A DNA stretch of 64,000 bases from a virus, in IMG/VR virus record IMGVR_UViG_3300035210_000189, positions 64,001 through 128,000 of that record. One strand, written 5' to 3'. This document shows positions 11,583-57,238 of this stretch, in pieces. How positions within the stretch are numbered: position 1 is the first letter of the stretch; each line of letters starts with the position of its first letter. The position numbers and the translations under genes were made by a program. The notes under the pieces are model-generated. The model searched no databases. It saw nothing but the letters and a program-made list of their open reading frames with translations, and was not told the DNA's origin.

Positions 11583-12260
11583 ATGAACGCAGCTACCCAA
11601 CATTTCAGTGGTGTTTTTACTAAAATTAAGACACTCATCAGCCAATATAAACTTTCAGAGTTTATTAATTCTTCTTTGCTGTTTTCTTCGCTCTGTTCGT
11701 TGGCTATGCTGTATGCCTTCTCTTATGGATTGCAGACAGAAAGCCGTGAATTGATTGTCTTTACCCCGCTTAATGCTATTAGTTCATTCCTTTTATTTTG
11801 TTTTGGCTTATGGATGACAAAAAGCTCTAAATTACCAGATCGCTATTATAGCTGGTCCTCGGCCATTAACTATCTCGGGGTGCTGTTACTTATTCCTTAC
11901 CTTGTCTTTATTGACAATCGGTCAATGGTAGCATTGGCAATGTCGTTTTTCTTTATCAATATTTTTAACTTGTGTATCCTGTTACACCTATTAAATTTCC
12001 GTTCTAATTACCACCATGACTGGAATGCCTTGCGTAAACTGACATCATTGAAATCTGGTTTCAATTTCAAACTGTCGATGGGAGTAAAATTACATGTGTT
12101 GATGCCTGTGGGTTTAGTGACAATCTATTTTGATAAAATTTGTGTGAATGGTGTTGATTATGATTTGTATGATCTAACCAAATACTTTGAAACCCATGAT
12201 TTAGATTTAAATACCGCCACTGATGATGATTTTAAACTGTTTGAAATGATCAGATATTAA
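11583..12260 (+). CDS. Membrane protein, family D (1/3)
   Basis: About 4 TM segments plus soluble C-terminal domain; ends LFEMIRY. Confidence 0.75.
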   Translation: MNAATQHFSGVFTKIKTLISQYKLSEFINSSLLFSSLCSLAMLYAFSYGLQTESRELIVFTPLNAISSFLLFCFGLWMTKSSKLPDRYYSWSSAINYLGVLLLIPYLVFIDNRSMVALAMSFFFINIFNLCILLHLLNFRSNYHHDWNALRKLTSLKSGFNFKLSMGVKLHVLMPVGLVTIYFDKICVNGVDYDLYDLTKYFETHDLDLNTATDDDFKLFEMIRY

Positions 12261-12283
12261 TTACGTTAGATAAGGATTGATTT

Positions 12284-12946
12284 ATGAATAAAATTATATT
12301 TTTTTGTCAACGTTTGTTTGTCTCCTATTCTGTGTCTTTGATGGCTATTATTTTTTCTGTTTTTTTTGGAATAGCTAACTCAGGTATTGTGGAATCAGAT
12401 ATTATTGGCATTGTAGTAACAGGTTGTTTAGCCTTGGTTATGCTTGTTATGTGTGCGGATGGCCGTGCAGAAATTAAAAATATTACTTACTATTCAAAAG
12501 TGGCAAGTTTAAACTATCTATTCAGCTTTTTATTGATTGTTTATACTATTTTAATGAAAGGATTTGATATACATTTCATGTTGGCACCTGCTCTATTGTT
12601 AAGTCTTTTTAATATATATCTGTGTTTTAAAATGCAATCAAATCTTTCTAATCTGGTCGTGGTTCCTGAACTTCAAAAACTTCGTAAATTGCTACCTGAT
12701 GTCAAACACTTCAAGATTGATTATGATTACACTTTTTTGAAACCTACTGATGCTCCGAGGTATGAGCCAAGATCTTACAAAATTATCACGACACTTGGAA
12801 ATCTATCTTTTGATGGAAGATTCTTTTATCTTAATGGACATACTTATGAGATAGCTAACTTTATTTCGGGTTATAGATCGTGTAATATTAACATTGACAC
12901 ATCAACACCAGAAGATGCTACCGTTATGCAAATGTTTTGTATATAA
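12284..12946 (+). CDS. Membrane protein, family D (2/3)
   Basis: YYS..A..NYL, FN, LRKL motifs; ends VMQMFCI. Confidence 0.75.
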   Translation: MNKIIFFCQRLFVSYSVSLMAIIFSVFFGIANSGIVESDIIGIVVTGCLALVMLVMCADGRAEIKNITYYSKVASLNYLFSFLLIVYTILMKGFDIHFMLAPALLLSLFNIYLCFKMQSNLSNLVVVPELQKLRKLLPDVKHFKIDYDYTFLKPTDAPRYEPRSYKIITTLGNLSFDGRFFYLNGHTYEIANFISGYRSCNINIDTSTPEDATVMQMFCI

Positions 12947-13035
12947 AAGCAATGGTATAAGCCATTCTGATCTATCATGTTTACTCGGAATAGTGTATAA
13001 TCAGCTTCTAATTTAAATAATGCCATGAGGTATTT

Positions 13036-13698
13036 ATGAAATCATTAAACATGTTACGTCAGTTAAATTTAGCATCCTTCATCATGTTGGCGTGTGCTAT
13101 TTATTGTGCTGTTGCTTCATTTCATTACGTGACAGTAAATGGAAATAAGTTTTTCTTTGCTGTCGGTGGTGTTACTTCGGTGATGTTGGGTTTTGCGGTT
13201 GTCTTGAATGTATTGAATATTTTCATGATGCCGCGAGATAAATTCTATTCCAATGGGGCATGGACATTCCATTTACTCAGTGTACTGCTGTTGGTTACAT
13301 CGTTTACAGCCCCCGAAGAATATTTGATCAACTTTATCAGTATCGCTGTGCTTTCCATTTTCAATATTGTTGTTTTTTTAAGCACGATGTCATTTCGTTC
13401 TCGTGAATCGACGTTGATCAATCAACTTCGAAAACTATTTCCTGATGAAAAGTTCTTTAATTTCGATATTGATTTCAAATTTAAGAAAGACTTCATTGAA
13501 GACGCTGTTGATACTTACATTTCTGGCATTCGTCTCTTGACGCCCTTTGGCAAAGTAGTGTTTGTCGGTGATGGTTTTTATTTCGATGATCGTTTTCATG
13601 AAGCTAAACGCTTTGTGACTAGCCTAAAAGATTGTGGTTTTAAGTTTAATAAAGCAACACCTGACGAAATGAAAGTTGTTGAAATGCACGTTTATTAA
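13036..13698 (+). CDS. Membrane protein, family D (3/3)
   Basis: LRKLFPD, TPFG; ends VVEMHVY. Confidence 0.75.
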   Translation: MKSLNMLRQLNLASFIMLACAIYCAVASFHYVTVNGNKFFFAVGGVTSVMLGFAVVLNVLNIFMMPRDKFYSNGAWTFHLLSVLLLVTSFTAPEEYLINFISIAVLSIFNIVVFLSTMSFRSRESTLINQLRKLFPDEKFFNFDIDFKFKKDFIEDAVDTYISGIRLLTPFGKVVFVGDGFYFDDRFHEAKRFVTSLKDCGFKFNKATPDEMKVVEMHVY

Positions 13699-13732
13699 AT
13701 TTTTTAATAATTATTTAACATTAGGAGTTCGT

Positions 13733-13921
13733 ATGACCACTATTACACAACGTTCAAAAGATGATTTGCTACACGACATTATTTGTTTCTGTCGGGATGA
13801 CTACGATGAGCTAGCCAGCATTATCAGAAATGGTATGAAAGGCATGAACGACATGGATGAAGCGGAGTTGCTGGCTTTGTTTAAAGAATATGGCGTTGAG
13901 CCTGCTTTTGAGGTGGAATAA
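13733..13921 (+). CDS. Small acidic hypothetical protein
   Basis: AGGAG RBS. Confidence 0.6.
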   Translation: MTTITQRSKDDLLHDIICFCRDDYDELASIIRNGMKGMNDMDEAELLALFKEYGVEPAFEVE

Positions 13922-14193
13922 TGGCTAAGTTGAGTTCGTTACTCAGTTGGATTAAAAAGCCTCGGGATAACCTGAATGAGCTTCGTAGTGAGGCTCAATC
14001 ACTTATTAGTCAGATTGAATCTCGCTTGTATGCACAAGAAACTCGGGAAGGTTATCTTAACTCCATGAGGACGCTAAGATCGAGTCGAGAACTCTTACAA
14101 ATGCTAGAAGGAACCAGTGAGGCTAATCAAATTATATTCTTGAAAAAAATGATTAAGCGATTAAAGCCTATTAGCAAAATGAAATATTGTTAA
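13921..14193 (+). CDS. Hypothetical protein
   Basis: GAGGT RBS, translationally coupled. Confidence 0.6.
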   Translation: MAKLSSLLSWIKKPRDNLNELRSEAQSLISQIESRLYAQETREGYLNSMRTLRSSRELLQMLEGTSEANQIIFLKKMIKRLKPISKMKYC

Positions 14194-14276
14194 ATAATCA
14201 TAGAATATTGTTGTTATATAGTACCCGTTATGTTATTATTAACATCTTGCTTTCAAATATTAGTCAGGAGCCGTTC

Positions 14277-14807
14277 ATGAAATCTAAAGAACTAACAAAA
14301 TTAAATATTCTCGTTGCTGTCCTTAAAAACAACTACAGTGATTATTATGAAAAGCATATTGGACATGACTTTCTTGATGATCTTGATGTCCACAAAAACT
14401 CAGATAGCATTTCTTATTTGATGGAACATGTTCGTAAGCTGAAACCAACTGACAAAGAATATCCTGACTATTTGAAGCATTGTTATGCTATCTTCCTTGA
14501 ATTGCAACACCTTGTTAAAGTAGAACTTGAAGAAGCTGAACAAAACCACATTCATCTCATTAAACGCAGTTTTACTACAAAGTCCGTTGATCGTTTAATG
14601 TTGCTTGACTTGGCTGTGAACGACCCGTTTTCAATGGATAAATTTTGTGAAGATGTCAAAAAAGATAAAAAAGAGTTTTTATCCAGCGTAATTATCAATT
14701 TGGTAGAAAGCTATAAGTTATTCAAGAAAGAAAAAACTCGAAAATTAGATAGAATCAACTATTTCACTAATTATTTTGCAAAATGTTTTAATGATTTAAC
14801 GAATTGA
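14277..14807 (+). CDS. Hypothetical protein
   Basis: AGGAG RBS. Confidence 0.65.
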   Translation: MKSKELTKLNILVAVLKNNYSDYYEKHIGHDFLDDLDVHKNSDSISYLMEHVRKLKPTDKEYPDYLKHCYAIFLELQHLVKVELEEAEQNHIHLIKRSFTTKSVDRLMLLDLAVNDPFSMDKFCEDVKKDKKEFLSSVIINLVESYKLFKKEKTRKLDRINYFTNYFAKCFNDLTN

Positions 14808-14810
14808 GCA

Positions 14811-14940
14811 ACTATGGCCCGTATCCCTGTATTGGTTAAGACCTAGTAGCAATAGTCCGGTGGATACCTCGCCAGTAATGGTAATTAGACGACTGAATGT
14901 GTGTCGGCAAATCCGGTGTAATGGTGGAAGTCCGTTAACA
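14811..14940 (+). ncRNA. Candidate structured RNA, family unknown
   Basis: GC-rich intergenic stretch: gtatcc/ggatac stem, gcca-GTAA-tggt tetraloop, gtcgg-caaat-ccggt and taatgg-tggaagt-ccgtta hairpins, then a terminator. Confidence 0.5.
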
Positions 14941-14943
14941 AAG

Positions 14944-14964
14944 AAGACCTTCGGGTCTTTTTTT
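14944..14964 (+). terminator. Intrinsic terminator
   Basis: aagacc-TTCG-ggtctt plus T-run. Confidence 0.85.
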
Positions 14965-15137
14965 GTTTATATTTTATTATTATTGAAATATCAAAACAAG
15001 AAGGATTGGTTAATGTTAAAAAACGAGATGATTATTGGAAGAGTATTACTGCCATTAAGAAATAATTAGTTTACATATTCTAAATTGATAAATATTTTAA
15101 TACAGGTATAATAATAAAAAATAATAAGAATAAAGAT

Positions 15138-15983
15138 ATGCACAACTATTTAAAAATGGCATTGGCTGTTTCAATGTCAGTTACCCCATTACTATCGCTT
15201 GCTGATTATAAAGTTAATTACTTTCTTGATAAAAATAATATATCCTTTAAAAATAAACCCCTTGCTCAATGGCTGGCGTCAACACCAACTTATAGTGAAT
15301 GGGCATATGTAGGTGATTATTTTAACTGTCAATCAGCTTTACCTACGGCTGATTCACAACCAGATGGTGTTTCTTTCACTCAAACATTATCAGAATGCAC
15401 TAAAATTCGTTCTCGTACAGTTCAAGAAAGAGAACAGAATAATCAGACACACGAATACCGAAATGTGGGTATCCCTGTAGAAGAAACTGAAAATGAAGAA
15501 CATTTAACATACACCAAACAATTAACTGGCACGAAAGTGTCATTCTCGTTTACTTTCTCGGCAGGTAAATCATCAGCAGTGGGTGGAGATACCATTGTTG
15601 GTCTTTATGCTAGAACAAATGCTGGCATTTCTCTTGGGTCAACCGTTTTAAATGAAAATGGTGCTCGTATATTGTTGTATTATTATTCACATGCATATTA
15701 CAATGCAATGACAGTCTGTTCCATAAGATTTGCAATGACCGCCAAAACGGGTTGGACTCCGGGGGGAGTAACACCTCCTACTGCTATGAACGACTTGAAG
15801 AAATATAATTATATTGATTTATATAAATCTAGCACCTTAGTTAAACGTTATTCTGTAGCCGCCGCCCCTGTATTAACTTCTGATGCGGGATACTTTAAAG
15901 AAATCTCAGTTCCTTGTAGTGAGATGTCTGCTTTTTATGCAAATACAACGTTGTTTAATAAAGTCGAATTAAATAAAGACTAA
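15138..15983 (+). CDS. Secreted protein, 'ADY' family (1/3), adhesin-like
   Basis: Sec signal ending SLA|DYK; W..W..C...FTQT..C...RTVQ module. Confidence 0.7.
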   Translation: MHNYLKMALAVSMSVTPLLSLADYKVNYFLDKNNISFKNKPLAQWLASTPTYSEWAYVGDYFNCQSALPTADSQPDGVSFTQTLSECTKIRSRTVQEREQNNQTHEYRNVGIPVEETENEEHLTYTKQLTGTKVSFSFTFSAGKSSAVGGDTIVGLYARTNAGISLGSTVLNENGARILLYYYSHAYYNAMTVCSIRFAMTAKTGWTPGGVTPPTAMNDLKKYNYIDLYKSSTLVKRYSVAAAPVLTSDAGYFKEISVPCSEMSAFYANTTLFNKVELNKD

Positions 15984-16036
15984 AATTAAATAATAAAAAA
16001 AGACCTTCGAAAAGGTCTTTTTTGTTTGTTAGTTAT

Positions 16037-16618
16037 TTACTGTTTTTGGAACTTAGCCCACTCTTCTTTGATGGTTTCTGAATCGACAAAGACAGCAATA
16101 TTTTCATAGACTACATCGTTAATCTTGATATCATGATCTCGACCGACTGACATACCAAGGATGGCTGATTTGTCTGCAGAGTAGACTGGCCCACCTGACA
16201 TGCCACCAATCGTTTTGGAATCACTAATGGCATAGCGACCATCTTTAAACTCAACTTCATCTCTGATGAACTTCCCACGTAGTTCAACCGATAAACCATT
16301 TGGCTTCGGGCCTACATGAATAACTTCTTCATCATCTTTTGGTGTTCTCCATTCAATGTTTGGATTGAATTTATCATTCGGTTTGTTTTTGAAGAACACA
16401 AGATCAACCGTTTCACTCACGTAATCAGGCGATTCTGGGTATTTGTTGTGCTTGGCTGTTACGGCATATTCTTCATTCCACTGAATAAAGCTGGCCGTCA
16501 CTACTTCGGGGTTTTTGTTTCCAATAATGGTATCATAATTACTATTGGGAGCATGACTTGAACAACCAACAACTGCAGCAGCCAGAACCAATGCACACAT
16601 CATTTTAACGATTTTCAA
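16037..16618 (-). CDS. Trypsin-like serine protease lipoprotein (intact triad)
   Basis: Lipobox VVGC; VTAKH, VDLVF, GMSGGP. Confidence 0.85.
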   Translation of the reverse strand: MKIVKMMCALVLAAAVVGCSSHAPNSNYDTIIGNKNPEVVTASFIQWNEEYAVTAKHNKYPESPDYVSETVDLVFFKNKPNDKFNPNIEWRTPKDDEEVIHVGPKPNGLSVELRGKFIRDEVEFKDGRYAISDSKTIGGMSGGPVYSADKSAILGMSVGRDHDIKINDVVYENIAVFVDSETIKEEWAKFQKQ

Positions 16619-16765
16619 TGTTAATACTCCTATTAAAGTTGCAACGATTATACGCTTAAATATTAATATTAGCAATTGTTTTTTTGTTCTTTATAACCTT
16701 TTTGGATTACTGTTTGACGAAAAACCAATTTGAGGTATACTTTTTCCATTGGTAGGAGATGTAAA

Positions 16766-17338: not shown

Positions 17339-17341
17339 TTG

Positions 17342-17370
17342 TTGACTTTCAATGGCTCTTTTGTTAATAT
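17342..17370 (+). promoter_or_regulatory. sigma70-like promoter of tRNA-like RNA
   Basis: TTGACT-17 nt-TAATAT. Confidence 0.7.
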
Positions 17371-17375
17371 GGAAC

Positions 17376-17471
17376 CACTAGGTAGAGATGACGATGCAAT
17401 CGCCTCACAGCAAGGTTAGATCATCTTTAGGTTCAGCGGCGATTGGCGGGGTTCGAAGCCCCGATCTAGTG
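17376..17471 (+). ncRNA. Stand-alone tRNA-like RNA (acceptor stem and T arm, no canonical D/anticodon arms)
   Basis: cactaggt/atctagtg terminal stem, caatcgcc/ggcgattg stem, cgggg-TTCGAAG-ccccg T arm; own promoter and terminator. Confidence 0.75.
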
Positions 17472-27853: not shown

Positions 27854-27970
27854 TATAAGCACACAAGATAATGTCTATATTAAAAGAGCCGACGAAAGGC
27901 TCTTTTTTTCGTTTAGCCCTTTTATTTGTTAGTATTTGATATATAATAGTTGCAAACTAAGGAGTGTATT

Positions 27971-28654
27971 ATGTTTAAATTAATGGCGGTTCTTTTCTCG
28001 GGATTATTCCTTACTGGTTGTGCCGTTCATGACATCGGTAAAACATTGGACAGAAAGAAAGATAATTATTCCATTCTTGAAACTGTTCATGAGCCACAAA
28101 ACAATTTGAACTATGTCCGGTTTGAAAGTCGTAAAACAGATGGAGCAGACACTTACTTTACTGTTTCCAGTGGTGTTCAATGGAACGATGACTATGTGGT
28201 CGCTTTAAAAACCACTGAAAGTGAGAATGATAAGTTTGCCTGTCTTGATGCATGTGGGGTTGTCTTTATCAAGAAACATAAAACAGCACCCGTGCCTGAA
28301 TGGCGTCACCGTGTCAGTAACGAGCCTGTTATTTTGTTAGGGGCTTCTGATGAAGTTGACGAAACGTTTGTTTTTAAATCAATGGACATTGATGTTTCTG
28401 CTATCAGTGCTGACATTACACCTTATCCAGTTTATGCAGTTCCTACAACGATTGTTGAGAATAATGCAGAAGGTGGCCCTGTTTATGGGAATGACGGTAA
28501 AGTGATTGGTATCATTTCTGGCTTCGTCAACACAGTGGATGATACAGGTGAACGATTAACCTATCTGGATGGTTTTGATTCTGGTTATTTTGCTTTGTAT
28601 ATTCCATACAGTGAATTGATTAGAGCATGGGATTTAGTCAAACCTGTTAAATGA
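27971..28654 (+). CDS. Trypsin-fold lipoprotein, predicted inactive
   Basis: Lipobox LTGC; QWNDDYVV and GGPVY shared with 16037; catalytic His and Ser replaced (VALKT, NAEGGP). Confidence 0.75.
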   Translation: MFKLMAVLFSGLFLTGCAVHDIGKTLDRKKDNYSILETVHEPQNNLNYVRFESRKTDGADTYFTVSSGVQWNDDYVVALKTTESENDKFACLDACGVVFIKKHKTAPVPEWRHRVSNEPVILLGASDEVDETFVFKSMDIDVSAISADITPYPVYAVPTTIVENNAEGGPVYGNDGKVIGIISGFVNTVDDTGERLTYLDGFDSGYFALYIPYSELIRAWDLVKPVK

Positions 28655-30101: not shown

Positions 30102-30827
30102 ATGTTCAGACATATCGTTATTGCTACGATTACCAGCTTGATTGTTGGTTGTTCGTTTAATCCCTTCAATTCAGAAGCTGAACGAGCAAAACAGCCCATT
30201 GATGGACTTAAAAACTATAATGTTGTGCAAGACGCCAGTGTTAATATGGGCGGTAGAGAACTGAGCTTTATCACTTTTGAGAAAACTGTTGAAGTTGTGG
30301 TTAATCAAAATGGAAAGATGATTAAAGACTCTCAATCACAATATGCCAGTGGTGTTCAATGGAATGAAGATTATGTGGTGACGACCAAAAATGTCGATTT
30401 TGCAGACGGGTCTGTTCAGCCATGTATCAAAGATTGTGAGATTCAATTTATCAAACGAAAAGCAACCGCTCCGGTTCCTGATTGGCGTTCTCATGTTGTT
30501 AATGAGCGAATCACCTTTGTAGGGATTGAAAGTGAAGCTCGTTTTCGTGCTGAATTTGGCATGGATTTGAACGTTAAAACCTATACTGAAACCAATACCG
30601 GCACGTTGCTCAATGTAGCCGATAATCAAATTGTTAACGGCATGTCAGGTGGTCCAGCTTATGGTCTGGATGGTAAAGTCGTTGGTATTTTGACGGGTTC
30701 GACTGAAACGATAAATCTTCGTAATTCAACCAATCGTAATTTGAGTGGACGTGGTGAACACTTGTCAGTCTATCTTTCTTATGAAGATGTTCAGAAAGAA
30801 TGGGAAAAATTTCAACAATCACATTAA
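30102..30827 (+). CDS. Trypsin-fold lipoprotein, catalytic His absent
   Basis: Lipobox IVGC; VTTKN in place of VTAKH; GMSGGP retained. Confidence 0.8.
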   Translation: MFRHIVIATITSLIVGCSFNPFNSEAERAKQPIDGLKNYNVVQDASVNMGGRELSFITFEKTVEVVVNQNGKMIKDSQSQYASGVQWNEDYVVTTKNVDFADGSVQPCIKDCEIQFIKRKATAPVPDWRSHVVNERITFVGIESEARFRAEFGMDLNVKTYTETNTGTLLNVADNQIVNGMSGGPAYGLDGKVVGILTGSTETINLRNSTNRNLSGRGEHLSVYLSYEDVQKEWEKFQQSH

Positions 30828-31091: not shown

Positions 31092-31874
31092 ATGAAAAAT
31101 ATTATCAAAAACCATTTAAAAAAATTATTTGAAGAGACTTTTAAACTTCCAGTTCATAAGATCCTTTTCTCTAAAAATAAGTATAATTCTCAAATTTTTG
31201 CCGGTAATGTTTATTATGGCGACAATAAAAAATTAAAATATAAATTTACGACAACTCCTATCAATGAAGACTCATTTACAACTAAGTTAGTTATTCCAAC
31301 TGATGATGATTTGTATCAATCTGATTATTTTTCTGGTTTGATTGAAAATCATGTCATTTATCAAAAAGTCAGAAGTTGTTATAATTTAAACCATAAGTAC
31401 AAACAGTTTCGCCTTGATGAATATGAATCTCCTATTGTCATCAAGCAGACTGTCAAAAACAACAAAGTCGAAGTTACTCATGATTTTCAATTACATATTT
31501 TCTCTGTGAATGGTTTGAATTCAAAGTCTGTTTTAGAAGGTCAGTTGGACACTAATATTTTTCTTGAATGGACAGATAATAACCTCATTAATGTTCGTGA
31601 TCCTTATTTGAAACAAAATATTCATTATCCTAACAAGCGACGTATCATTGCTTTTCAGGGGCATGGTGATCAAAATATGGAGCAAAATGAAGATACTTAC
31701 AATTTTATTTTAGATATTATCCATCAAAACTTTATTCACTTTATCGCTTATCATCAACGTGGCACTGTACCTATTGATGAAATGACAATTGAAGAAGTTT
31801 ACAAGACAAATCATACGGAATTAAATTATAGATTCATTTCTGAAAATCTTGTTCGGGATATGGTTTTGATTTAA
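31092..31874 (+). CDS. Hypothetical protein ending VRDMVLI
   Basis: Long ORF; shared C-terminal motif. Confidence 0.7.
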   Translation: MKNIIKNHLKKLFEETFKLPVHKILFSKNKYNSQIFAGNVYYGDNKKLKYKFTTTPINEDSFTTKLVIPTDDDLYQSDYFSGLIENHVIYQKVRSCYNLNHKYKQFRLDEYESPIVIKQTVKNNKVEVTHDFQLHIFSVNGLNSKSVLEGQLDTNIFLEWTDNNLINVRDPYLKQNIHYPNKRRIIAFQGHGDQNMEQNEDTYNFILDIIHQNFIHFIAYHQRGTVPIDEMTIEEVYKTNHTELNYRFISENLVRDMVLI

Positions 31875-31947
31875 TACTGTATTTCGTTGCTTAAATCCAA
31901 AAAATACGGTATAATCAGGCTATTAAATTAACTAAGGTCATCATATC

Positions 31948-32484
31948 ATGAAAACTAGTCTTCGCCTTCTTCTCTCTGTTTTGGCTATTACATCGACAAT
32001 GGCTTTTGCAGATACTCCTGTTGAAAAAGGGTTAAGCCTTGAAAAGTTTAGCTATCAGGGCATTGGTTTTAAAGACAGCAAGACTGACCTCGTTGCTAAA
32101 CGTTTTGAATGCAATGCAATGTCGTGCAAACGTAAAGAAAAAGATACCAACATTGATGTTGTGTTTACGGATGATAGAATTCAAATTATTGATGCAAGAA
32201 CTCGCTATAACAATCACATTGATTGCTCAGTTAATCAGCGTGAAATTAAAAAGTTTTTGACGGACACCTATAATTTTGAATATCTGAATCAAGACAGCAC
32301 ATTCTTGGGAATGCACATGAGCAGTAATGATGTAGGTGGTAACATCCCTACCACTAATGGATCAATTTTTGTTAACGTTTCTTGCATGAACGACCCTAAA
32401 ATCAACATGGGTTATGTGAATACTCGGTTTAATCTCAAAGACATTTCAGCTCAGAGCTTCAAGGATTCTTTCAAATATGAATAA
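31948..32484 (+). CDS. Secreted hypothetical protein
   Basis: Signal peptide ending AFA|DT. Confidence 0.7.
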   Translation: MKTSLRLLLSVLAITSTMAFADTPVEKGLSLEKFSYQGIGFKDSKTDLVAKRFECNAMSCKRKEKDTNIDVVFTDDRIQIIDARTRYNNHIDCSVNQREIKKFLTDTYNFEYLNQDSTFLGMHMSSNDVGGNIPTTNGSIFVNVSCMNDPKINMGYVNTRFNLKDISAQSFKDSFKYE

Positions 32485-33016
32485 AATAAGCAGCAATGGT
32501 TCTGTGCATCATCTTATTGATTTGAAATCAAGGGAGGCTATGCACCTTTATTACGGTTTAAAGAACAGGTTTGAATATACTGTTGAGAACCGTGAAGAAG
32601 TCGTCAAAACCATTGCTGATGACATTCGTGATTTTGTATTGCAATATGATTTTGTGGTATACCCAGAAAGCAGTGCTTCGTTTATCAGTGATGTGTTGAG
32701 TCAGATTGATATTTCAACGTATCAAGTGGTGAAAAACTCTATTGAGAACGTCAGAGTGTTTTCAAACACACTTAACCTGCAGAAGAAAGAACGCGAAAGC
32801 CATGAAGAACGATTTGCCTTGATGGGGCCAAAGTTCAAAATCAACCAGATGAAGTCAACTCAACGTGTTAAATATGAAGAGGTTATTTTTGACAAGCTTG
32901 ACTTACCAGAAGGTCGAGGGCTTATTGTAGATGATAGCCACTTCTCAGGCACTACATACCGAGCGTTGGTAACTGTGACTGGCATTGAAGATTTCTTGGC
33001 AATCTTTTCAAAGTGA
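32477..33016 (+). CDS. Phosphoribosyltransferase-like protein
   Basis: LIVDDSHFSGTT resembles the PRPP-binding loop; VYPESS. Confidence 0.65.
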   Translation: MNKISSNGSVHHLIDLKSREAMHLYYGLKNRFEYTVENREEVVKTIADDIRDFVLQYDFVVYPESSASFISDVLSQIDISTYQVVKNSIENVRVFSNTLNLQKKERESHEERFALMGPKFKINQMKSTQRVKYEEVIFDKLDLPEGRGLIVDDSHFSGTTYRALVTVTGIEDFLAIFSK

Positions 33017-33035
33017 CGACAAAACAAAAAGGAGC

Positions 33036-33914
33036 CTAAGCTCCTTTTATTATTTGATGACGACACAATTGTTTCGAAATTGAATCATAATTCATAACCA
33101 TTATTCCAATCACCAACATTGGAACACATAATAGTTGACCTGTTGTTAACCAACCAAAAGCAATATAGCCTAGATTGGCATCGGGTTCTCTAACAAATTC
33201 GACTGAAAATCTGAATATCGCATACATGATCATGAACAATCCACAAATAGATCCTTTTGTTCTTTCTTTCATCGAATACGCTTTCAATATGAAAAATAAA
33301 ACAACACCTTCTAATATGGCTTCATAAATTTGTGATGGATGTCTTGGTAATGATCCTGCATTTTGAAATACTATTCCAAATGGCCCATCTGTTACCTTCC
33401 CCCATAGTTCTCCATTGATAAAGTTGCCTAATCGACCTTCTGCTAAACCTATGGGAGCTGTTAATGCTATAATGTCCATACATTTCAAAAACTGTATTTT
33501 ATATTTTCTAGCATAGATCCAGACGCCAATGACTAATCCTATTAATCCACCATGAAAAGAGACGCCTCCTTTCCATAAGGCAATAATGTCGATAGGATGA
33601 CTGAAATAATGTTCCAGTGGATAGCCTTGGTATATGATGAGATACAAAAGCCTTGCACCAATGATCATACCAAATACGGCATATAGAATAAGCATGTAAG
33701 CATCGTCTTCTTTTAATTTATTGTCTATTTTTGATATATCTTTGACCATTTTTATTCTAGCAATCACGATGGTTGTTAGGAACAAAAGCCCATACCACTT
33801 GATACTAACGATTTTAAGATCAATAGCCACTGGATTAATTGGATAGTTTTTTATAATCAATGTTAAAAATATTCCGAATAGAAATAATATTGCTATATTT
33901 GTTTTTGTTATCAT
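33036..33914 (-). CDS. lgt: Prolipoprotein diacylglyceryl transferase
   Basis: WYGL, GARL.Y, GGVSFHGG, GRLGNFINGELWG, HPSQIYE, FRF.VEF.REPD. Confidence 0.95.
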   Translation of the reverse strand: MITKTNIAILFLFGIFLTLIIKNYPINPVAIDLKIVSIKWYGLLFLTTIVIARIKMVKDISKIDNKLKEDDAYMLILYAVFGMIIGARLLYLIIYQGYPLEHYFSHPIDIIALWKGGVSFHGGLIGLVIGVWIYARKYKIQFLKCMDIIALTAPIGLAEGRLGNFINGELWGKVTDGPFGIVFQNAGSLPRHPSQIYEAILEGVVLFFILKAYSMKERTKGSICGLFMIMYAIFRFSVEFVREPDANLGYIAFGWLTTGQLLCVPMLVIGIMVMNYDSISKQLCRHQIIKGA

Positions 33915-34078
33915 TAAAGAATCCTTTTAAGGCTTATAGATTAACATCTTCTAGAACAATATCAAATTAAACAATATTGACATTAACAAAACAATAAACA
34001 TTTTACTAGATAACCTCTATTTGACAGCATTTTTAAGTGGTGGTAGCATGATATTAATATAACATTAGAAGTATAACT

Positions 34079-34672
34079 ATGAACAAGTTATTATGTATAC
34101 CAGCTTTGATTGTTTTAATGACAGCGGCACCTGTAAACGCAGATTACAGAATGGTGGTTGGTTTAGAGCAAAACTCTGGTGGTGGACTGGCTAATGATTC
34201 TATTGTGTTCAAAACAGCTTCTACACCACCTGTTGAAGCACCAACAGATGATTATTCTATCTTTGGCATTTATGAGTCAGTTGCAAGAGCGATTGTTAAC
34301 AATAAAAATCCTGTCACAGTAATGACATATGAAAATGTCAAAGATGTCTTTACTGCTGGGTATAACCTCAATGAATATAAACGTCTTCAAGATTTTGGAT
34401 ATGGATACGGCCTTATGGGGGCTTATGCTTTCAATACTGACCTTAGTTTGAGCAATCTGATTAATTTACATGAGGAAGGTTATAATTTGATTAGATTAGG
34501 TGAAGCAGCTTATTATATTCAAAATGTGTATGACATGCCTTTTAAACAAGGACTTACTAAAATTATAACTTCTTATAAGGCAAGTTGTTGGAATACATTA
34601 GATGAAGCATTTACACAAATGGATATTTCTGCGTGGGATAATTATGCAGCTCAGCGAAATTGTTTAAAATAA
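34079..34672 (+). CDS. Secreted protein, 'ADY' family (2/3)
   Basis: Signal ending VNA|DYR; SIVF followed by a Pro-rich linker. Confidence 0.7.
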   Translation: MNKLLCIPALIVLMTAAPVNADYRMVVGLEQNSGGGLANDSIVFKTASTPPVEAPTDDYSIFGIYESVARAIVNNKNPVTVMTYENVKDVFTAGYNLNEYKRLQDFGYGYGLMGAYAFNTDLSLSNLINLHEEGYNLIRLGEAAYYIQNVYDMPFKQGLTKIITSYKASCWNTLDEAFTQMDISAWDNYAAQRNCLK

Positions 34673-34738
34673 TTTGAAACCATTCGTACTTTTGTGATAT
34701 AATAAGGCCACACATAAAGGACAAAGAGGATAAATATC

Positions 34739-36314: not shown

Positions 36315-37531
36315 ATGTTGTTGAAAGAATCCCCCTTCCTTCAGGTAGGGGATGAATTTCAACCATGCTCTTGACTTTTGTTATTTTCTCAATATAATCA
36401 ACCACATGATTAAAACATTCCAATATAAAATTAAAACTGGGAAGATTAATTCTTCCGATTGTCGCTGGCTTTCTCAAAAAGCCAGTTCCATTAACTATAT
36501 CTGGAATTATTGCAACGATGCCCAAAAGCATAAACTTAAATGGGACAGTCAAAAAAAGTGGTTAAGTGGTTTTGATCTTAGTTCCATGTGCGGTGGTGTA
36601 TCAAAAGAAATTGGCTTACATTCACAAACAGTCCAAGCTGTTTGTGAAGAGTATGCCAATAAACGCAAAGCAAAGAAAAAAGCCTATTTACGTTATCGTA
36701 GTTATAAAAAATCACTGGGTTGGATTCCTTTTAAAACAACGGGAATTAAGTTTGATCCTGATAATCAATCTTTTACCTATCAAAAACGTGAGTTTAAAGT
36801 GTGGTATAGGCGTGAGATTCCGGCTGATACCAAGATTAAAAGTGGTAGTTTCTGCCAAGATAATTTAGGCCATTGGTACATCAACATCGTTGTTGATATA
36901 CCCGAGGTTAAACGCACTCAAAAACCGACTGCAGAAGTGGGTATTGACCTTGGCTTAAAAGATTTAGCTGTTCTTTCGGATGGGAAAGTCATTCCTATCT
37001 TCAAATACTATCGAAAAAACGAGAAAAGACTTGGATTGGCTCAACGAGCCAATAAGAAAGGTCAAGTTAAAAAAATACACAAGAAAATTGCTAATTCACG
37101 AAAAGATTCAGCGTTTAAAATCGCTAATGATCTTGTGAAAAATTACGCTTTAATTGTGGTAGGAAACGTGAGTCCATCAAAACTTGGTAAAACCAAAATG
37201 GCTAAGTCAGTTTATGATGCAGGTTGGACACTTCTAAAAAAGCAGGTTGAGTATTTAGCGATTACGCACCAATCCGTATTTTTAGAAGTGAATGAAAGTT
37301 TTACAACCCAAGCTTGTTCGTCTTGTGGAAATAGGACGGGGCCGAAAGGCTTAAAAGATCTTGGAATAAGAGAATGGAAATGCCCAGTATGCAATACTGT
37401 TCATGACAGAGATGTAAACTCTGCGAAAAACATTCTCCGTATCGGACATGATACGCTAGAAGTAGGAATCCCCTTCCTTACCGCCTAACGGCGGCAAACA
37501 TTTTTAATGTTTGAGGTGGGGAGGATGTCAA
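36315..37531 (+). mobile_element. tnpB-only IS200/IS605-family element (IS1341-like)
   Basis: Matching subterminal hairpins GAATCCCC..TTCCTT..AGGT.GGG; right end finishes in TCAA; no tnpA; left junction uncertain (36315-36327). Confidence 0.85.
36406..37488 (+). CDS. tnpB: RNA-guided endonuclease TnpB
   Basis: GIDLGLK (RuvC-I), CSSC/CPVC zinc finger, HDRDVNSAKNI (RuvC-III); promoter TTGACT-16 nt-TATAAT just upstream. Confidence 0.93.
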   Translation: MIKTFQYKIKTGKINSSDCRWLSQKASSINYIWNYCNDAQKHKLKWDSQKKWLSGFDLSSMCGGVSKEIGLHSQTVQAVCEEYANKRKAKKKAYLRYRSYKKSLGWIPFKTTGIKFDPDNQSFTYQKREFKVWYRREIPADTKIKSGSFCQDNLGHWYINIVVDIPEVKRTQKPTAEVGIDLGLKDLAVLSDGKVIPIFKYYRKNEKRLGLAQRANKKGQVKKIHKKIANSRKDSAFKIANDLVKNYALIVVGNVSPSKLGKTKMAKSVYDAGWTLLKKQVEYLAITHQSVFLEVNESFTTQACSSCGNRTGPKGLKDLGIREWKCPVCNTVHDRDVNSAKNILRIGHDTLEVGIPFLTA

Positions 37532-41676: not shown

Positions 41677-42189
41677 TTATATCACTAACATGTTGGCTAG
41701 AGTTAACCTTTGATTGAAATCAACACTGTTGAAATCATACACACCAATAACATCTAGTTCTGGTAGCAGATCTCGAATGTCTTGTCCTTCTGGTTGTTTT
41801 GAACGCATATAAATATTTAACAAATTCTTATCAACACTTGGATAAAAATGACTGGTATATCCATTTCCGTCTCTTACATAATGATAAATGACCTTAGACA
41901 GTTCCAAATGATTTTCGTGCTTTACATCAGCATAAAAAATCCATAACACGTCACCATTTAACTTGTTGTAAAAAGAAAATCGTAAGCTTTTAAATTTTCC
42001 ATTATCAAAAAGAGCATCACAGTCCCTAGACATACCATCAAAAGACAGTTTTAATTTAATGGTATTAAAATTCATTGTTTCTTTTAAAGGCATACCATTA
42101 GCATCCTGTTCGCACAGGACTTCAAAATAACCGGGAAGTCCCCATTTATTTTTATCTTCAAAATCAGTGAGTGTAAATTTTTCGTACAT
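41677..42189 (-). CDS. Hypothetical protein, family F
   Basis: C-terminal LLPE....GVYDF.S..F.QR..LANM..I. Confidence 0.75.
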   Translation of the reverse strand: MYEKFTLTDFEDKNKWGLPGYFEVLCEQDANGMPLKETMNFNTIKLKLSFDGMSRDCDALFDNGKFKSLRFSFYNKLNGDVLWIFYADVKHENHLELSKVIYHYVRDGNGYTSHFYPSVDKNLLNIYMRSKQPEGQDIRDLLPELDVIGVYDFNSVDFNQRLTLANMLVI

Positions 42190-42710
42190 TAGATTAATAC
42201 CATATTAGCGAGGGACACTCGTTGTTTAAAAGATTCACTGGTAAAGTCATAGACTCCTGTGATGTGTATTTCTGGTAAAAGTTCTTCCATGACTTCTTTA
42301 TGGCCTGTATGTCTTGCCATTAGCACCTTAATGAGATCTTCTTCCAAAATAGCTCCTAGTCTATGTCTATCACCTTCATGATGACGCCTTCCTGTTTTAC
42401 TGTAAACAAAAGACGTTCTCACGAAGTTTAGATCTTGATCAAAGAGAATGCTGAGATTTTTTGTGAAGTTTTTATTATGAAAAGAAAAGTGAAGTCTTTT
42501 AAGTTCAAACTCATCAGAAAATGAAGCACTGCAGACTTCATTCAAACCATTAAAAGATAAACCTGTTTTAATATCAAGATTTTTTATTTCTTTATGTTTG
42601 GTATAAATATCAAATTTTTCTTTCGCCAATGACACAAGACGAATAACCAGTCCCGTTTTATTGACGGTCAGGAAATTTGAAATAACGGGAGCATTTACCA
42701 TAGATAACAC
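42189..42710 (-). CDS. Hypothetical protein, family F
   Basis: Same C-terminal block. Confidence 0.75.
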   Translation of the reverse strand: MLSMVNAPVISNFLTVNKTGLVIRLVSLAKEKFDIYTKHKEIKNLDIKTGLSFNGLNEVCSASFSDEFELKRLHFSFHNKNFTKNLSILFDQDLNFVRTSFVYSKTGRRHHEGDRHRLGAILEEDLIKVLMARHTGHKEVMEELLPEIHITGVYDFTSESFKQRVSLANMVLI

Positions 42711-45120: not shown

Positions 45121-45453
45121 ATGACTAACGCTACTATTAAAATTGATAACAAAGAAATATCTACACTGGCGGCAGAATGGCTTGATGCTATTGAAACCAT
45201 TCCAAACGAAAGTATTTATTCAAAAATGAAAGTTCGTGAAGAGTCCATGAATTTGTGGAATATGTTCCGCAACAACTGTGATGTGCTGGTTAATGGCGAT
45301 GTTTCCATTGTTGTGACCGAAGTTGACATCATGCAAAAATCGAAGGCGTATGCGGTGTTTGTTCACTCTCTGCCAGAAAACATTCGAGAGTTGTTTAATA
45401 GCAAGTTTGAAAACTTTTGGGACGCTGTTTGCACCCATATGGTTCTAAAATAA
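45121..45453 (+). CDS. Hypothetical protein
   Basis: GGAG RBS. Confidence 0.7.
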   Translation: MTNATIKIDNKEISTLAAEWLDAIETIPNESIYSKMKVREESMNLWNMFRNNCDVLVNGDVSIVVTEVDIMQKSKAYAVFVHSLPENIRELFNSKFENFWDAVCTHMVLK

Positions 45454-51896: not shown

Positions 51897-52032
51897 TTTT
51901 ATTGCTTACTTTTCAAAGCCACTTCGGTGGCTTTTTTATTAACTAAATTTATTGAAAATTGATCCCTTATGCCTTTGTGGTTGATTTTTTTTATATTTTG
52001 TGTTAAACTCAAATACTATTTGGAGTTCCTTT

Positions 52033-53541: not shown

Positions 53542-53550
53542 TAGATTATT

Positions 53551-54120
53551 TCATCCAAAATAATCCTTGTATCTCTCATACCTATCAATTAAAGCTTTGG
53601 CTACACGATTATCAGTTTGTTGTGCAGCCAAGATCTTAGCTTGATCTAATTTGAAACTAAGCCATACACTGTGAGCTTGATCGGCTGTATCATAGATTCC
53701 TAAATACTTTTGACCATTTCCAAGCGTTCCACACCTTGATTGATATTGATTACCATGTTTAGAAACACCAACAGGAAGGTTTTGCCCAGCTTTTTCAGTA
53801 ATAAAAACATTAACAACACTACTCACAAATACGCAAGTTTCAGGTCCATATTCTTTGTTGTTAGGAAAGAGTAAATCTTTATCCAATTGCTTTCCATCCC
53901 AATCTTGTGTTTCCATCCACATCTTAAATTGTGTAAAATATTTCCAATCTTCAATTACATAACAGTTTGCGTAGGCTGGATGTCTAGCTATTTCATAATC
54001 ATTATAACACCGACATAGCATATCTTTCCATTTACGAAAGTATGGACAAGTCCATGCTGATGTTCTTGTTGTATAGTCAGCATCATTGACACCAACACCG
54101 TAAATCAATTTTTTGCCCAT
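53551..54120 (-). CDS. Phage HNH-like (homing-type) endonuclease with AP2-like C-terminus
   Basis: W..ML.RC, W..F..FK.W, QLDKD...YGPETCVFV; LP.GV...YLG.Y.TA..A. Confidence 0.7.
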   Translation of the reverse strand: MGKKLIYGVGVNDADYTTRTSAWTCPYFRKWKDMLCRCYNDYEIARHPAYANCYVIEDWKYFTQFKMWMETQDWDGKQLDKDLLFPNNKEYGPETCVFVSSVVNVFITEKAGQNLPVGVSKHGNQYQSRCGTLGNGQKYLGIYDTADQAHSVWLSFKLDQAKILAAQQTDNRVAKALIDRYERYKDYFG

Positions 54121-54262
54121 GATATCACCTTAATTTTTAACAATTCATAAGTTTCATTACATGTTAACTCACAAATATTGTATAGCAATTCTTTTTTTTT
54201 GTTTTTTTTATGATTAAAAAAAAGCCCCACTACTGTGAGGCTTTCTGTTTTAGGTGATTTGA

Positions 54263-54979
54263 TTACAGGAAGTGAGCAGCACTTTTTGGAGTCAGCTCAT
54301 AACCATAGGATTTCAAAAACTCCTTATCAAATGCAATGATTTGATCGCGGTTTTCAGTGAAATGTTCAGGCTCTTCAATTTTGTTGGCTGGGATGGCCGT
54401 TGCACTGAATATGTTGCCATACAGTTCAACCAGTGCCATTTGATTAGCATCAATGGTGCCAATCATGTGAATAGGCGTTGGATCGAGTTTTTGTTCCCAA
54501 CCAATAATATCAGTTTGACCATTAACCAGACCAGACATCGAATCAATGGCGGCGACCATCAAAGCAAAAGCATTTTCTGGCATAGAGCTTGTTTCGTCTG
54601 TCATATAGCCGAACAGAGATACCTTTTCACCTTCGTTGGGAACCAAAGTCACTTTCTTACGCGATTTTGCGACACTGCCATAACGATATTTGCGATAACC
54701 ATCAATCATGTTTTTGTAGGCATCTGCTGGCTTACCATCCATGTGACCTTGAAAAAGTTCCAGATAAGCCGGTAGGTTCTTCATCATCTTGTTGGTAACA
54801 CCCAAGCAGACATGATCAGAAGAGTGGTGATAGTTGGACACGATAATCTTATCAGTCAGGCTGTAGCTCTTAGGCACTCGCTCAGCAGCATGCAGACCAA
54901 GACGACGTTGTTCTTGAAACAAAGGGATATTATCACGATCAATGTCATGACGAATGGCGATTAGAACTTGATTACCCAT
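54263..54979 (-). CDS. Hypothetical protein
   Basis: GGAG RBS; terminator. Confidence 0.7.
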   Translation of the reverse strand: MGNQVLIAIRHDIDRDNIPLFQEQRRLGLHAAERVPKSYSLTDKIIVSNYHHSSDHVCLGVTNKMMKNLPAYLELFQGHMDGKPADAYKNMIDGYRKYRYGSVAKSRKKVTLVPNEGEKVSLFGYMTDETSSMPENAFALMVAAIDSMSGLVNGQTDIIGWEQKLDPTPIHMIGTIDANQMALVELYGNIFSATAIPANKIEEPEHFTENRDQIIAFDKEFLKSYGYELTPKSAAHFL

Positions 54980-55130
54980 TTTTGTATCTCCGTTGGTTTT
55001 GATGTGTCTATTTTACTTAAAATGAATAAGGATGTACAGTTTTTTATTCTTTTTGTATGGGCATTATTTATCTTTTATTTTTAGCCTTGATGTGATATAC
55101 TTGTAATCATTTTATCTTAGAGGCATAGCC

Positions 55131-55883
55131 ATGACCAACACATTCAGAGAAACTATTTCTTCTGTTCTTACACTTAGTGATAGTAGTCTTGTCTTGATGG
55201 ATGAGCTTTTTTCTTTACGTGAGGAATTAAAAAGAAAAATATGTAAAGGTATTTCTGATATTGAACAGGCATTGTCGGTGGATTTTAGCTATTCTGTGAT
55301 GGATTCTGTTGATTCAGTGACCATTACCGATCATTATAAAGAAAAACCAAGTAATTTCCAACATCAACCAAAATGGATGATACCTAATGATGATAAAGTC
55401 TATAATTACAAGATGACACGTTATCAACAACATGGACAAAAGGTATTTAAATTTGAAGGCGATAAAACGATAAAACTAAGAGCAAAATCATTTGCTTTTG
55501 ATTTGCCACAATCAAATTCTTCCATTTTTTATCTTACATTTGACGATTATTTTAATGTGGTGTCTGTTGTTTTTGTATCGTCTACAAAAGACATGGGTAA
55601 GTTTTCTATCAAAAAAATCAGTTTACAATTTAATCAGCAGTTGAAGTTGACGCATTATGAATATAAGCATGAAAGTCTTAGAGAGCGATTTGAGCGAACT
55701 ATTAAAAAAACTTCTGATAGATTAATGAGTCTTGATGATGAAATTATTTTATGGCAACTATTTTCAAATCGGTCAGATGACATTAAAGAGCTTATTCCTG
55801 AGTATTATATTCCATCTGCTTATAATTTTAAGACACAAGAATTTTCGGATCGTTTAAACGTACTTTCTATGTTAATTCTTTAA
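55131..55883 (+). CDS. Hypothetical protein, family F
   Basis: ELIPEYYIPSAYNF...EFSDRLNVLSMLIL. Confidence 0.75.
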   Translation: MTNTFRETISSVLTLSDSSLVLMDELFSLREELKRKICKGISDIEQALSVDFSYSVMDSVDSVTITDHYKEKPSNFQHQPKWMIPNDDKVYNYKMTRYQQHGQKVFKFEGDKTIKLRAKSFAFDLPQSNSSIFYLTFDDYFNVVSVVFVSSTKDMGKFSIKKISLQFNQQLKLTHYEYKHESLRERFERTIKKTSDRLMSLDDEIILWQLFSNRSDDIKELIPEYYIPSAYNFKTQEFSDRLNVLSMLIL

Positions 55884-55898
55884 AACAGGTGCATTAAT

Positions 55899-56603
55899 AT
55901 GTTAACTGTTACAAAAACTGACATCAAAGATCAAGAGCTTGTCAAAAAGTTCTTGATGCCACCCGACTATATATCTTATGATGACTTCATTGATCACTGC
56001 ATCAATCAGATTACTGTAAAAGTTCAATCTATCATGGATGACCTTAGTATTAAAATGAACGCTCGATTAAAATTTGGCTCACATTCATTTTTGGATGGAC
56101 TTGATGATTCGCTTATCATCGCTTTAATGAAAATCTGTTTTAAAAAAGAAGTTGTTGATGGACAGATTTTTTGTGTTGCCAATTTCAATGGGATTTTGTC
56201 ATTTGAATGTGGAACCTTTGATTTCAAATTTAATCAATCTTATTCTTATTTCCATGTCATAGTTAATGAAGAACTCGAATTAACTGCTTTCGAATATTCA
56301 TCTGTCGTTTATGATAGCCAAAATGTTAACAAACGAGTTAACTTAAAATTCGATCAGAATGCGAACCTTACTGAATATTTGTATAAAGTAGACTCTAGTT
56401 TTTTTGGATGGTCTGTTGAGCGTTTAAAAAGTAAAAAGATGTTGTGCCCTTATGCTGATGAATTGTTTCTACATAATTCAATTGCTCACCGAACACCCTT
56501 GATGAATGATCTGTTTCCTGAGCTTTCTATAATTGGTGTCTATGATTTTTCGTCACCTGAATTTAAACGTAAACTAACTTTATTTGAAATGTCATTAATT
56601 TGA
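55899..56603 (+). CDS. Hypothetical protein, family F
   Basis: LFPELSIIGVYDFSSPEFKRKLTLFEMSLI. Confidence 0.75.
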   Translation: MLTVTKTDIKDQELVKKFLMPPDYISYDDFIDHCINQITVKVQSIMDDLSIKMNARLKFGSHSFLDGLDDSLIIALMKICFKKEVVDGQIFCVANFNGILSFECGTFDFKFNQSYSYFHVIVNEELELTAFEYSSVVYDSQNVNKRVNLKFDQNANLTEYLYKVDSSFFGWSVERLKSKKMLCPYADELFLHNSIAHRTPLMNDLFPELSIIGVYDFSSPEFKRKLTLFEMSLI

Positions 56604-56617
56604 TTACGGAGACTATT

Positions 56618-57238
56618 ATGACTGAACTTGAACATTATATCCAATCCAAAAAGAATGATATTAAAGAAAAAATTTATAATTGTATTTTAAAGATAGATCA
56701 GCACTTCAATATTAAACTAGATTATGATTTAACAGACGTTGGTAATGATATTATTATTAAAGGTGTTGATGAGTATTCTTTTACTGTTTCAAAATGGTTT
56801 CAATCAAAGATCAATCCTTGTAATTTATTGAAATTTAATTGTGCTGGATTTCCTTTTGTCCTTCCTAATAGTCATAAGATGATTTTTTTCATTAGGTTTA
56901 ATGATGATTTTGATATTGAACAAGCTCAATTTAGAACTTCCTTTTTAACTAAGAAAGGTAATATCACTGGACTAAAGATTTTTTTTGACAAATCCCTTGA
57001 GTTGGGTCTTATCGAGAATAGTTATATTCCAAGTGGTGGTGGCAAAAGCAGTTATAGTTTAAAAACATCAGAATTGATGTGTCCATTTTTAGATGAGGTT
57101 ATTTTGTTTCGACTGTCTTACAACACAAATGAAGAGGTTAAAGAACTGTTGCCAGAATATTACATCCCGTCAGCTTATGATTTTAATTCTGTAGAATTTG
57201 CAGATCGTCTGAAAGTGTACAGCATGTTGACACTTTAA
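56618..57238 (+). CDS. Hypothetical protein, family F
   Basis: LLPEYYIPSAYDFNSVEFADRLKVYSMLTL; GGAG RBS. Confidence 0.75.
   Translation: MTELEHYIQSKKNDIKEKIYNCILKIDQHFNIKLDYDLTDVGNDIIIKGVDEYSFTVSKWFQSKINPCNLLKFNCAGFPFVLPNSHKMIFFIRFNDDFDIEQAQFRTSFLTKKGNITGLKIFFDKSLELGLIENSYIPSGGGKSSYSLKTSELMCPFLDEVILFRLSYNTNEEVKELLPEYYIPSAYDFNSVEFADRLKVYSMLTL

Follow-up and report, generated by a model that had tools for sequence, protein, structure and literature searches.

Introduction

The closest described counterparts of the C-terminal tails analyzed here are the C-terminal epitopes by which T4-family phage proteins bind the sliding clamp gp45. A peptide of gp43 was crystallised on the gp45 clamp of RB69 (structure 1B8H). 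In gp43, gp55 and gp33 the clamp is bound by a short tail, hydrophobic and acidic in character, and these modules can be exchanged freely between proteins (PMC3012046, PMC2988020). We have analyzed a stretch of 64,000 nucleotides (the window), corresponding to bases 64001-128000 of the IMG/VR virus record IMGVR_UViG_3300035210_000189 (G000; 152,440 bp, 34% G+C), which belongs to a giant, almost unannotated, phage-like element. An initial annotation had noticed nine proteins of the window ending in [LV]-x-x-M-x-x-[ILY]-COOH and had suggested a recognition signal at the free C-terminus of diverse cargo. A tail of this kind was found on 16-20% of the open reading frames (ORFs) of the element and its relatives, distributed over at least 20 families that are unrelated in sequence. 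As relatives, three close records (G001-G003, 162-193 kb) and one distant record (G004, 290 kb, 32% G+C) were compared.

Short terminal signals are also known from other systems. C-terminal degrons are recognised in the ssrA/ClpX system, and FtsH favours non-polar tails. Targeting sequences of the T4 internal proteins, cargo peptides of encapsulins and microcompartments, and Dot/Icm signals with a hydrophobic residue at -3/-4 plus acidic residues direct proteins into virions, compartments or secretion machines. The tail of the present element was compared with several of these systems.

Results

Methionine at position -4 is enriched throughout the proteome

A simple greedy set of 244 ORFs was derived from record G000. 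Methionine occupied position -4, counted from the C-terminal residue as -1, in 43 of these ORFs, where about 6 were expected; the other positions from -1 to -12 carried 1 to 11 methionines. The C-terminal residue was isoleucine in 44 ORFs of the same set, and 38 ORFs matched [LIVMF]-x-x-M-x-x-[ILVYC]-COOH. Methionine at -4 was also frequent in G001, G002 and G003 (61 of 304, 56 of 264 and 64 of 287 ORFs, respectively) and was found in 47 of 488 ORFs of the distant relative G004.

Four records were then pooled, and the last 15 residues of each protein were cut before BLAST clustering, which resulted in 353 families. After this collapse methionine at -4 remained in 36 families as compared to 8.7 expected (binomial p = 1.5e-12), -4 being the only enriched position. 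The full motif was present in 21 of the 353 families, whereas 1.1 were expected from its internal frequency. The proteome-wide enrichment thus persists once paralogues are collapsed, and its disappearance, which the initial annotation had named as the first outcome speaking against a signal, was not observed. The pattern is far above chance.

The tail is under selection at the protein level

Residue -7 was encoded by eight different codons (Leu by TTA, TTG, CTT, CTA, CTG and CTC, Val by GTT, Ile by ATT) and isoleucine at -1 by ATT, ATC or ATA, third codon positions being variable. Among 1,450 pairs of sequences within families, the same residue was specified by a different codon in 695 pairs at -7 and in 500 pairs at -1. 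No conserved sequence was found downstream of the stop codons. This finding and the synonymous variation at -7 and -1 rule out a motif at the DNA level. Furthermore, no Shine-Dalgarno-like element precedes the methionine codon, which rules out that a minigene of four codons, with a ribosome site of its own, is embedded there. The signal in the tail acts at the level of the protein and not of the DNA.

One observation points in the other direction: the Q-A codons (CAGGCN) of family 0 are found 8-12 nucleotides (nt) upstream of the start of the next gene, for which they may also serve as a weak ribosome-binding site. The 14 carriers in a row at record positions 134,788-146,556 (G000 134788-146556; L005/L006), an example of the tandem arrays described below, have stop and next start codons 1-2 nt apart or overlapping, and CAGGCN at the position of the next gene's ribosome-binding site may explain the fixed M-Q-A-I of this array. 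A general explanation by chance, by an artefact of ORF calling or by a DNA or RNA signal overlapping the gene ends (promoter, terminator or ribosome site) is nevertheless hardly credible, given the significance after family collapse, the free variation of third positions and of Leu codon families with nothing conserved past the stop, and the retention of the tails across five records.

Conservation was concentrated at the C-terminus. For pairs in the band of 20-30% body identity, the last nine residues were 50% identical as compared to 24% for the body, which corresponds to an about twofold difference. Methionine was located exactly at -4 in 186 of the 193 members of 24 carrier families; the seven exceptions were three truncated copies, two orthologues with an exchange of M to I, and two register slips by one residue, one of which falls in the doubtful family 83. 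Tag status was kept between G000 and G004: 17 of 17 carriers matched carriers and 37 of 37 non-carriers matched non-carriers, at identities of 22-63%, with most full-length carrier matches at 22-36%. DNA matches across families extended over 16-22 nt only and showed no sign of a recent transfer of tails from one family to another. From the synonymous variation, the conservation of the tail and the preserved tag status we conclude that the tag is old, stable and under purifying selection.

The tail is carried by mostly unrelated orphan proteins

Profiles of 21 carrier families, from which the last 25 residues had been cut, were compared with hhalign in all 210 pairs. Only one pair exceeded a probability of 90% (families 14 and 149, 97%), families 0 and 1 were borderline (74%), and the other 208 pairs remained below 25%; the median probability was 0.2%. 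Judged by these profiles the carrier bodies appear to be mostly unrelated, although only two folds were modelled and the soluble families may go back to a remote common ancestor. The initial annotation had also considered that two of its families, D (membrane proteins) and F (soluble proteins), might have a domain in common, with the motif as a structural part of it; their tail-trimmed profiles showed no similarity and different folds were predicted for them.

None of 101 carriers (26 BLAST groups) contained a Pfam domain at E <= 0.001, and only three chance-level matches (E 0.004-0.01) were obtained. PADLOC gave only two, comparably chance-level matches to the carriers, PHROG gave none, and the ESM Atlas contained no usable match for two carriers. 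Recognisable domains were found in non-carriers, namely RNA ligases 1 and 2, RegB, RRF, a class I tRNA synthetase, dCMP deaminase, NAD kinase, Sir2, an S26 peptidase, GNATs, methyltransferases, nucleases and TnpB.

The carriers consist of 200-390 residues (median 254) and often form tandem arrays of paralogues with 20-30% identity. Twenty carrier families are devoid of a hydrophobic segment and three are polytopic membrane proteins; none has a signal peptide alone. The N-termini of 38 carriers were dissimilar between families. In family D, basic residues are located beside the N-terminus and after the last of the four helices. This arrangement puts the tail on the cytoplasmic side; hence, a reader of the tail must be cytoplasmic as well.

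The tail is predicted to form an amphipathic helix

A family-weighted logo of the 24 carrier families started with T, L or F at -13, K, E or D at -12, D at -11 (0.41), F, D or Y at -10, L, I or F at -9 and K, L or T at -8. It continued with L or V at -7 (0.67), I, L or V at -6, E or D at -5 (0.63), the invariant M at -4 (1.0), I, L, V or A at -3 and any residue at -2; position -1 was I (0.71), then Y, C, L or V, with F also allowed. The cap at -13 to -11 was rich in S, T and D. According to the models, the tail is an N-capped amphipathic helix of 12-14 residues, i.e., about three turns, which ends at the carboxylate.

AlphaFold models were obtained for one member of each of the two larger families of the window. 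The family F protein encoded at 55131..55883 was modelled with a mean predicted local distance difference test (pLDDT) score of 84 as a long helix packed against a sheet of about 10 strands, followed by C-terminal helices. The terminal helix comprises residues 236-249, and the last 30 residues showed the lowest scores (pLDDT 62-73) as compared to a core above 90. No convincing match to this fold was found in the PDB by Foldseek or VIA-align (best Z 6.2). For the family D protein encoded at 13036..13698 (mean pLDDT 64), four transmembrane helices, a small β-hairpin domain and a terminal helix of residues 209-219 were predicted.

In family F the tail forms the end of a conserved module of 32 residues, L-P-E-x-x-I-P-S-A-Y-D-F-N-S-x-x-F-x-x-R-L-x-hydrophobic-x-x-M. 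In an exhaustive profile search, 137 clusters (50% identity) contained the module, and for nearly all of them the alignment extended to the last residue. Methionine was at -4 in 118 of the 146 pooled family F sequences and was mostly replaced by Ile or Leu in the rest.

These data also bear on the view that the helix is intrinsic to the structure of its carriers, which would then represent one very old, diverged superfamily or share a small C-terminal module, the helix packing on its own body or self-associating. Carriers of similar size, the 74% link between families 0 and 1, the relationship of families 14 and 149 and perhaps 44, the family F module and the missing DNA-level sign of a recent module transfer are all in line with this view, as is a tail helix of family D that was modelled with confidence (pLDDT above 80). 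However, 208 of 210 family pairs were dissimilar in profile after removal of the tail, and a protein with four transmembrane helices (D) is hard to reconcile with a soluble, β-rich one (F), as predicted. Folding would not require that all families keep an invariant methionine with the same spacing to the stop codon, and the tail of family F is the least confident part of its model. We consider a purely structural role rather unlikely.

The tail resembles the clamp-binding tail of T4-family polymerases

The C-termini of gp43 were translated from six Straboviridae records, and the comparison of the register covered tails of five genera. They read ...KKASLFDMFDF in RB69, ...TLFDMFDF in Dhakavirus, ...SLLDMFDF in Jiaodavirus, ...SLMDMFDF in an Acinetobacter phage, ...SLEDLFDF in Aeromonas phage 65, with Leu in place of Met, and ...SLDFLFG in the T4 species. 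In the common form, L, D and M occupy -7, -5 and -4, respectively, and positions -6, -3 and -1 are hydrophobic; the tag agrees with this form in register as well as in residue class. The logo fits the pattern L-hydrophobic-D-M-hydrophobic-x-hydrophobic-COOH of the gp45 epitope. The likeness is a resemblance and does not amount to membership.

The records were searched for a possible reader. The six IMG/VR records G000-G005, labelled 'provirus', were cut out of contigs measuring up to 1.9 Mb and are rated 50-96% 'complete'; exact or close homologues of window proteins were located on single contigs of 0.77, 0.83, 1.84, 1.86 and 1.92 Mb. A scan of genome contigs for a replisome returned only an unrelated Pseudomonas RNA ligase. 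One weak match to PF02916, below the cut-off, lay inside a carrier gene of a family with 14 paralogues; homology of this family to gp45 was rejected, as the match was not reproduced in orthologues. A profile of 39 sequences of the same family found nothing among PDB sequences.

Three paralogues with a trypsin fold are encoded in the window at 16037-16675 (-), 27950-28654 (+) and 30102-30827 (+). They show weak matches to PF13365, carry the serine motif GMSGGP in two cases and NAEGGP in the third, and are conserved in G001 and G004. Since they possess lipoprotein signal peptides and are thus exported, they were ruled out as readers of the tail.

Nine tailed proteins are encoded in the window

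All nine C-terminal heptapeptides listed in the initial annotation were found in the window exactly as written. The accompanying positions are the low coordinates of the ORFs and thus mark, for genes on the plus strand, the start and not the tail. As stated there, tails occur on both strands, two of the nine genes being located on the minus strand, and only about three carriers are independent: BLAST grouped them into family D (three genes), family F (five genes) and one singleton.

The three family D genes lie on the plus strand. The first (11583..12260) encodes a polytopic membrane protein of 225 residues with a small cytoplasmic C-terminal domain and the end LFEMIRY (tail at 12216-12257, ATDDDFKLFEMIRY). 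The second (12284..12946) encodes 220 residues ending in VMQMFCI (tail at 12902-12943, STPEDATVMQMFCI). The third (13036..13698), which was modelled, likewise encodes 220 residues and ends in VVEMHVY (tail at 13654-13695, ATPDEMKVVEMHVY). The singleton is encoded on the plus strand at 31092..31874 (260 residues, end VRDMVLI, tail at 31830-31871, RFISENLVRDMVLI); one orthologue is present in G003, and no match was obtained in Pfam, PHROG or the Atlas.

Two short forms of family F are encoded on the minus strand, at 41677..42189 (170 residues, end LANMLVI, tail at 41680-41721, DFNQRLTLANMLVI) and at 42189..42710 (173 residues, end LANMVLI, tail at 42192-42233, SFKQRVSLANMVLI). Three further members follow on the plus strand. 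The modelled protein (55131..55883) has 250 residues and ends in VLSMLIL (tail at 55839-55880, EFSDRLNVLSMLIL); its neighbour (55899..56603) has 234 residues and ends in LFEMSLI (tail at 56559-56600, EFKRKLTLFEMSLI). The last gene (56600..57238) encodes 212 residues counted from TTG and ends in VYSMLTL (tail at 57194-57235, EFADRLKVYSMLTL), the more likely start being the ATG at 56618, which is preceded by GGAG. Positions 56618 and 59607 are both ATG starts within slightly longer TTG-initiated frames.

Three near matches (3234, 45121 and 59607) had been listed in addition. They are present in the window; judged from their orthologues, however, they are probably not carriers. Orthologues of the protein at 3234 (TLIMP[AK]L) have Pro at -3, with a slip of one residue in one relative, and those of the proteins at 45121 and 59607 terminate in Lys or Arg.

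Other genes of the element

No capsid, terminase or polymerase genes were detected in the IMG/VR 'provirus' cut-outs of 150-290 kb, and the largest ORF in these records is below 1,000 residues. A cultured-phage collection contained neither a DNA nor a protein match to the window or to carrier family 0. An RNA ligase of the T4 RnlA type is encoded in the window at 139-1293 (+); it is 64% identical in G004, and its best match in cultured phages is found in the Ralstonia jumbo phage RsoM2USA (44% identity). A transposase of the IS605/TnpB type is located at window positions 36352-37488 (+) (phrog_506, E 6e-66), with a 41% identical copy in G004. Genes for tRNA-Leu(TAG) and tRNA-Cys(GCA) lie among orphan ORFs at window positions 8430-8513 and 21602-21675, respectively.

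Outside the window, G000 33120-34691 (-) (L002:13123-14691) encodes a protein of 523 residues that carries an N-methylation motif of type IV prepilins and weakly matches Shufflon_N (PilV-like). It is 41% identical to a G004 protein and is unexpected for a phage-like element. The best-conserved protein between G000 and G004 (68% identity over 385 residues) is encoded at G000 31920-33080 (+) (L002:11920-13077). It has no match in Pfam or PHROG and is a candidate for a core function.

Discussion

We propose, at about even probability, that the tail is a common, non-degradative docking handle in the cytoplasm. A single cytoplasmic partner, shared by the carriers, would accommodate the hydrophobic stripe (-7, -4, -3 and -1) together with the terminal carboxylate in one groove and would thus tether many fast-evolving orphan proteins through their portable tail. 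The best template for such a partner would be a sliding clamp of the gp45/PCNA type, since the tail corresponds, residue class by residue class, to the one with which T4-family DNA polymerases bind their clamp. The match in register, together with the T4-type genes RnlA, Rnl2 and RegB of the element, makes a clamp-type hub the leading candidate for the reader; docking to a hub of this type is nevertheless a tentative assignment only. That the tail is bound at all, and by which partner, is inferred. From the initial proposal of a recognition signal on diverse cargo, the action at the protein level, the free C-terminus and the unrelated bodies have been borne out, whereas a reader was not found in the records searched and the term 'targeting system' remains a suggestion.

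Several observations weigh against docking and, in particular, against a clamp. The confident helix at the end of the family D model could indicate packing of the tail against the domain to which it belongs. The tail is not preceded by a flexible linker of low complexity, and in family F, where it closes the conserved 32-residue module, it is not a bare appended peptide. The tag is found on about 40-60 proteins per record, whereas the gp45 epitope is found on 3-5. At least 50 orphans in 170 kb, with polytopic membrane proteins among them, are far above the number of clients of any known clamp. Residue -1 is mostly Ile in the tag and Phe in gp43. Finally, neither a clamp of the gp45 or DnaN type (PF02916, PF00712) nor a family B polymerase (PF00136) or any other candidate reader was found in the six records G000-G005, which are cut-outs.

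A different use of a cytoplasmic C-terminus would be a degron, read by an AAA+ protease or its adaptor (of the ClpXP, ClpAP, FtsH or Lon type, encoded by either the host or the element) and serving the scheduled turnover of accessory proteins. The fixed distance to a free carboxylate and the non-polar end are typical of C-terminal degrons, the presence of the tag on soluble proteins and on membrane proteins with a cytoplasmic tail would suit FtsH, and the carriers are fast-evolving orphans. However, neither tails nor logo show an Ala-Ala end as in the C-motif of ssrA-type ClpX substrates, the last residue being Ile in 71% of the families, and an invariant methionine in an amphipathic helix of 12 residues represents more information than known degrons need. 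Instability of one protein in six would be hard to explain. Furthermore, no protease or adaptor was found in the annotated parts of the records, the trypsin-fold paralogues being exported lipoproteins. Hence, we regard a degron as unlikely.

Sorting out of the cell and packaging into virions had been among the functions initially suggested and turned out to be the least likely of these, because three carrier families are polytopic with a cytoplasmic tail and none has a bare signal peptide. A signal for export, injection or encapsidation would direct the carriers into a virion or compartment, or to a secretion machine, for example via a type IV coupling protein. A shared terminal tag on a diverse, fast-evolving, effector-like repertoire in tandem arrays would fit such a role, as would the type IV pilin-like protein and the S26 peptidase of the element. 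Polytopic membrane proteins, on the other hand, are poor cargo for a capsid or compartment, and genes for a capsid, a shell or a secretion ATPase were not seen in the annotated parts of the records. The N-termini are unrelated and a conserved cleavage site is missing: a site of a prohead protease (L-x-E before Met) was ruled out, as -5 is often occupied by D, K, S, R or N instead of E. Taken together, a signal of this kind is very unlikely.

If one partner reads the tail, about a fifth of an unannotated element would share a common cellular address, and the hub of its accessory proteome would be defined. Short C-terminal tails that bind a hub are known, but neither at such a scale nor on a repertoire consisting entirely of orphans. 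If the partner were a sliding clamp, its set of clients would be by far the largest of all known clamps, suggesting that much of the dark matter acts on or near replicating DNA. It is conceivable, but doubtful, that the clamp-binding tail of a polymerase was turned into a proteome-scale address label, an invariant Met-x-x-Ile tail, for dozens to hundreds of unrelated orphan proteins, membrane proteins among them, served by one hub which would be the DNA clamp or a clamp-derived platform; if true, the accessory proteome of a virus would be organised by a principle that is new. Once its reader is identified, the tail would also provide a portable tag of 14 residues for experiments.

Comparison with known terminal signals

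The tag shares with bacterial C-degrons the free C-terminus, the non-polar end, the cytoplasmic location and the occurrence on soluble as well as membrane proteins; it differs in sequence, in the longer, helical epitope and in the invariant methionine. Capsid targeting sequences of T4 and the peptides of encapsulins and microcompartments are likewise short terminal peptides or amphipathic helices on unrelated, fast-evolving cargo, read by one structure. However, the T4 signal comprises about 10 residues at the N-terminus and ends in a prohead-protease site (L/I-x-E), with cleavage after L-x-E, whereas the tag is C-terminal, the N-termini of its carriers are dissimilar, and Glu is found at -5 in only a third of the families. 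Encapsulin and microcompartment peptides follow a different consensus and do not have an invariant methionine at a fixed distance from the end.

PIP boxes (Q-x-x-[LIM]-x-x-[FY]-[FY]) and β-clamp motifs (QL[SD]LF) are also short linear motifs that dock many clients on a ring-shaped hub via a hydrophobic pocket. They may lie away from the C-terminus, whereas the tag is locked to it. Gln did not exceed 0.07 at any position of the logo, residue -1 was aromatic in about 13% of the families, and an aromatic pair was not present.

The initial annotation had called the signal a candidate for an undescribed targeting system. No paper describing the tag was found; a look-alike in the same register exists, however, in the clamp-binding tail of the T4-family polymerases. 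Like the gp45-binding epitopes of gp43, gp55 and gp33, the tag is short, hydrophobic plus acidic, and located at the extreme C-terminus. It differs from gp43 at -3, which is aliphatic in the tag and aromatic in gp43, and its carriers are orphans without DNA-related domains, some of them membrane proteins, unlike the clients of gp45. Distant family F members in which methionine is replaced mostly have Ile or Leu instead, comparable to the Leu in gp43 of Aeromonas phage 65.

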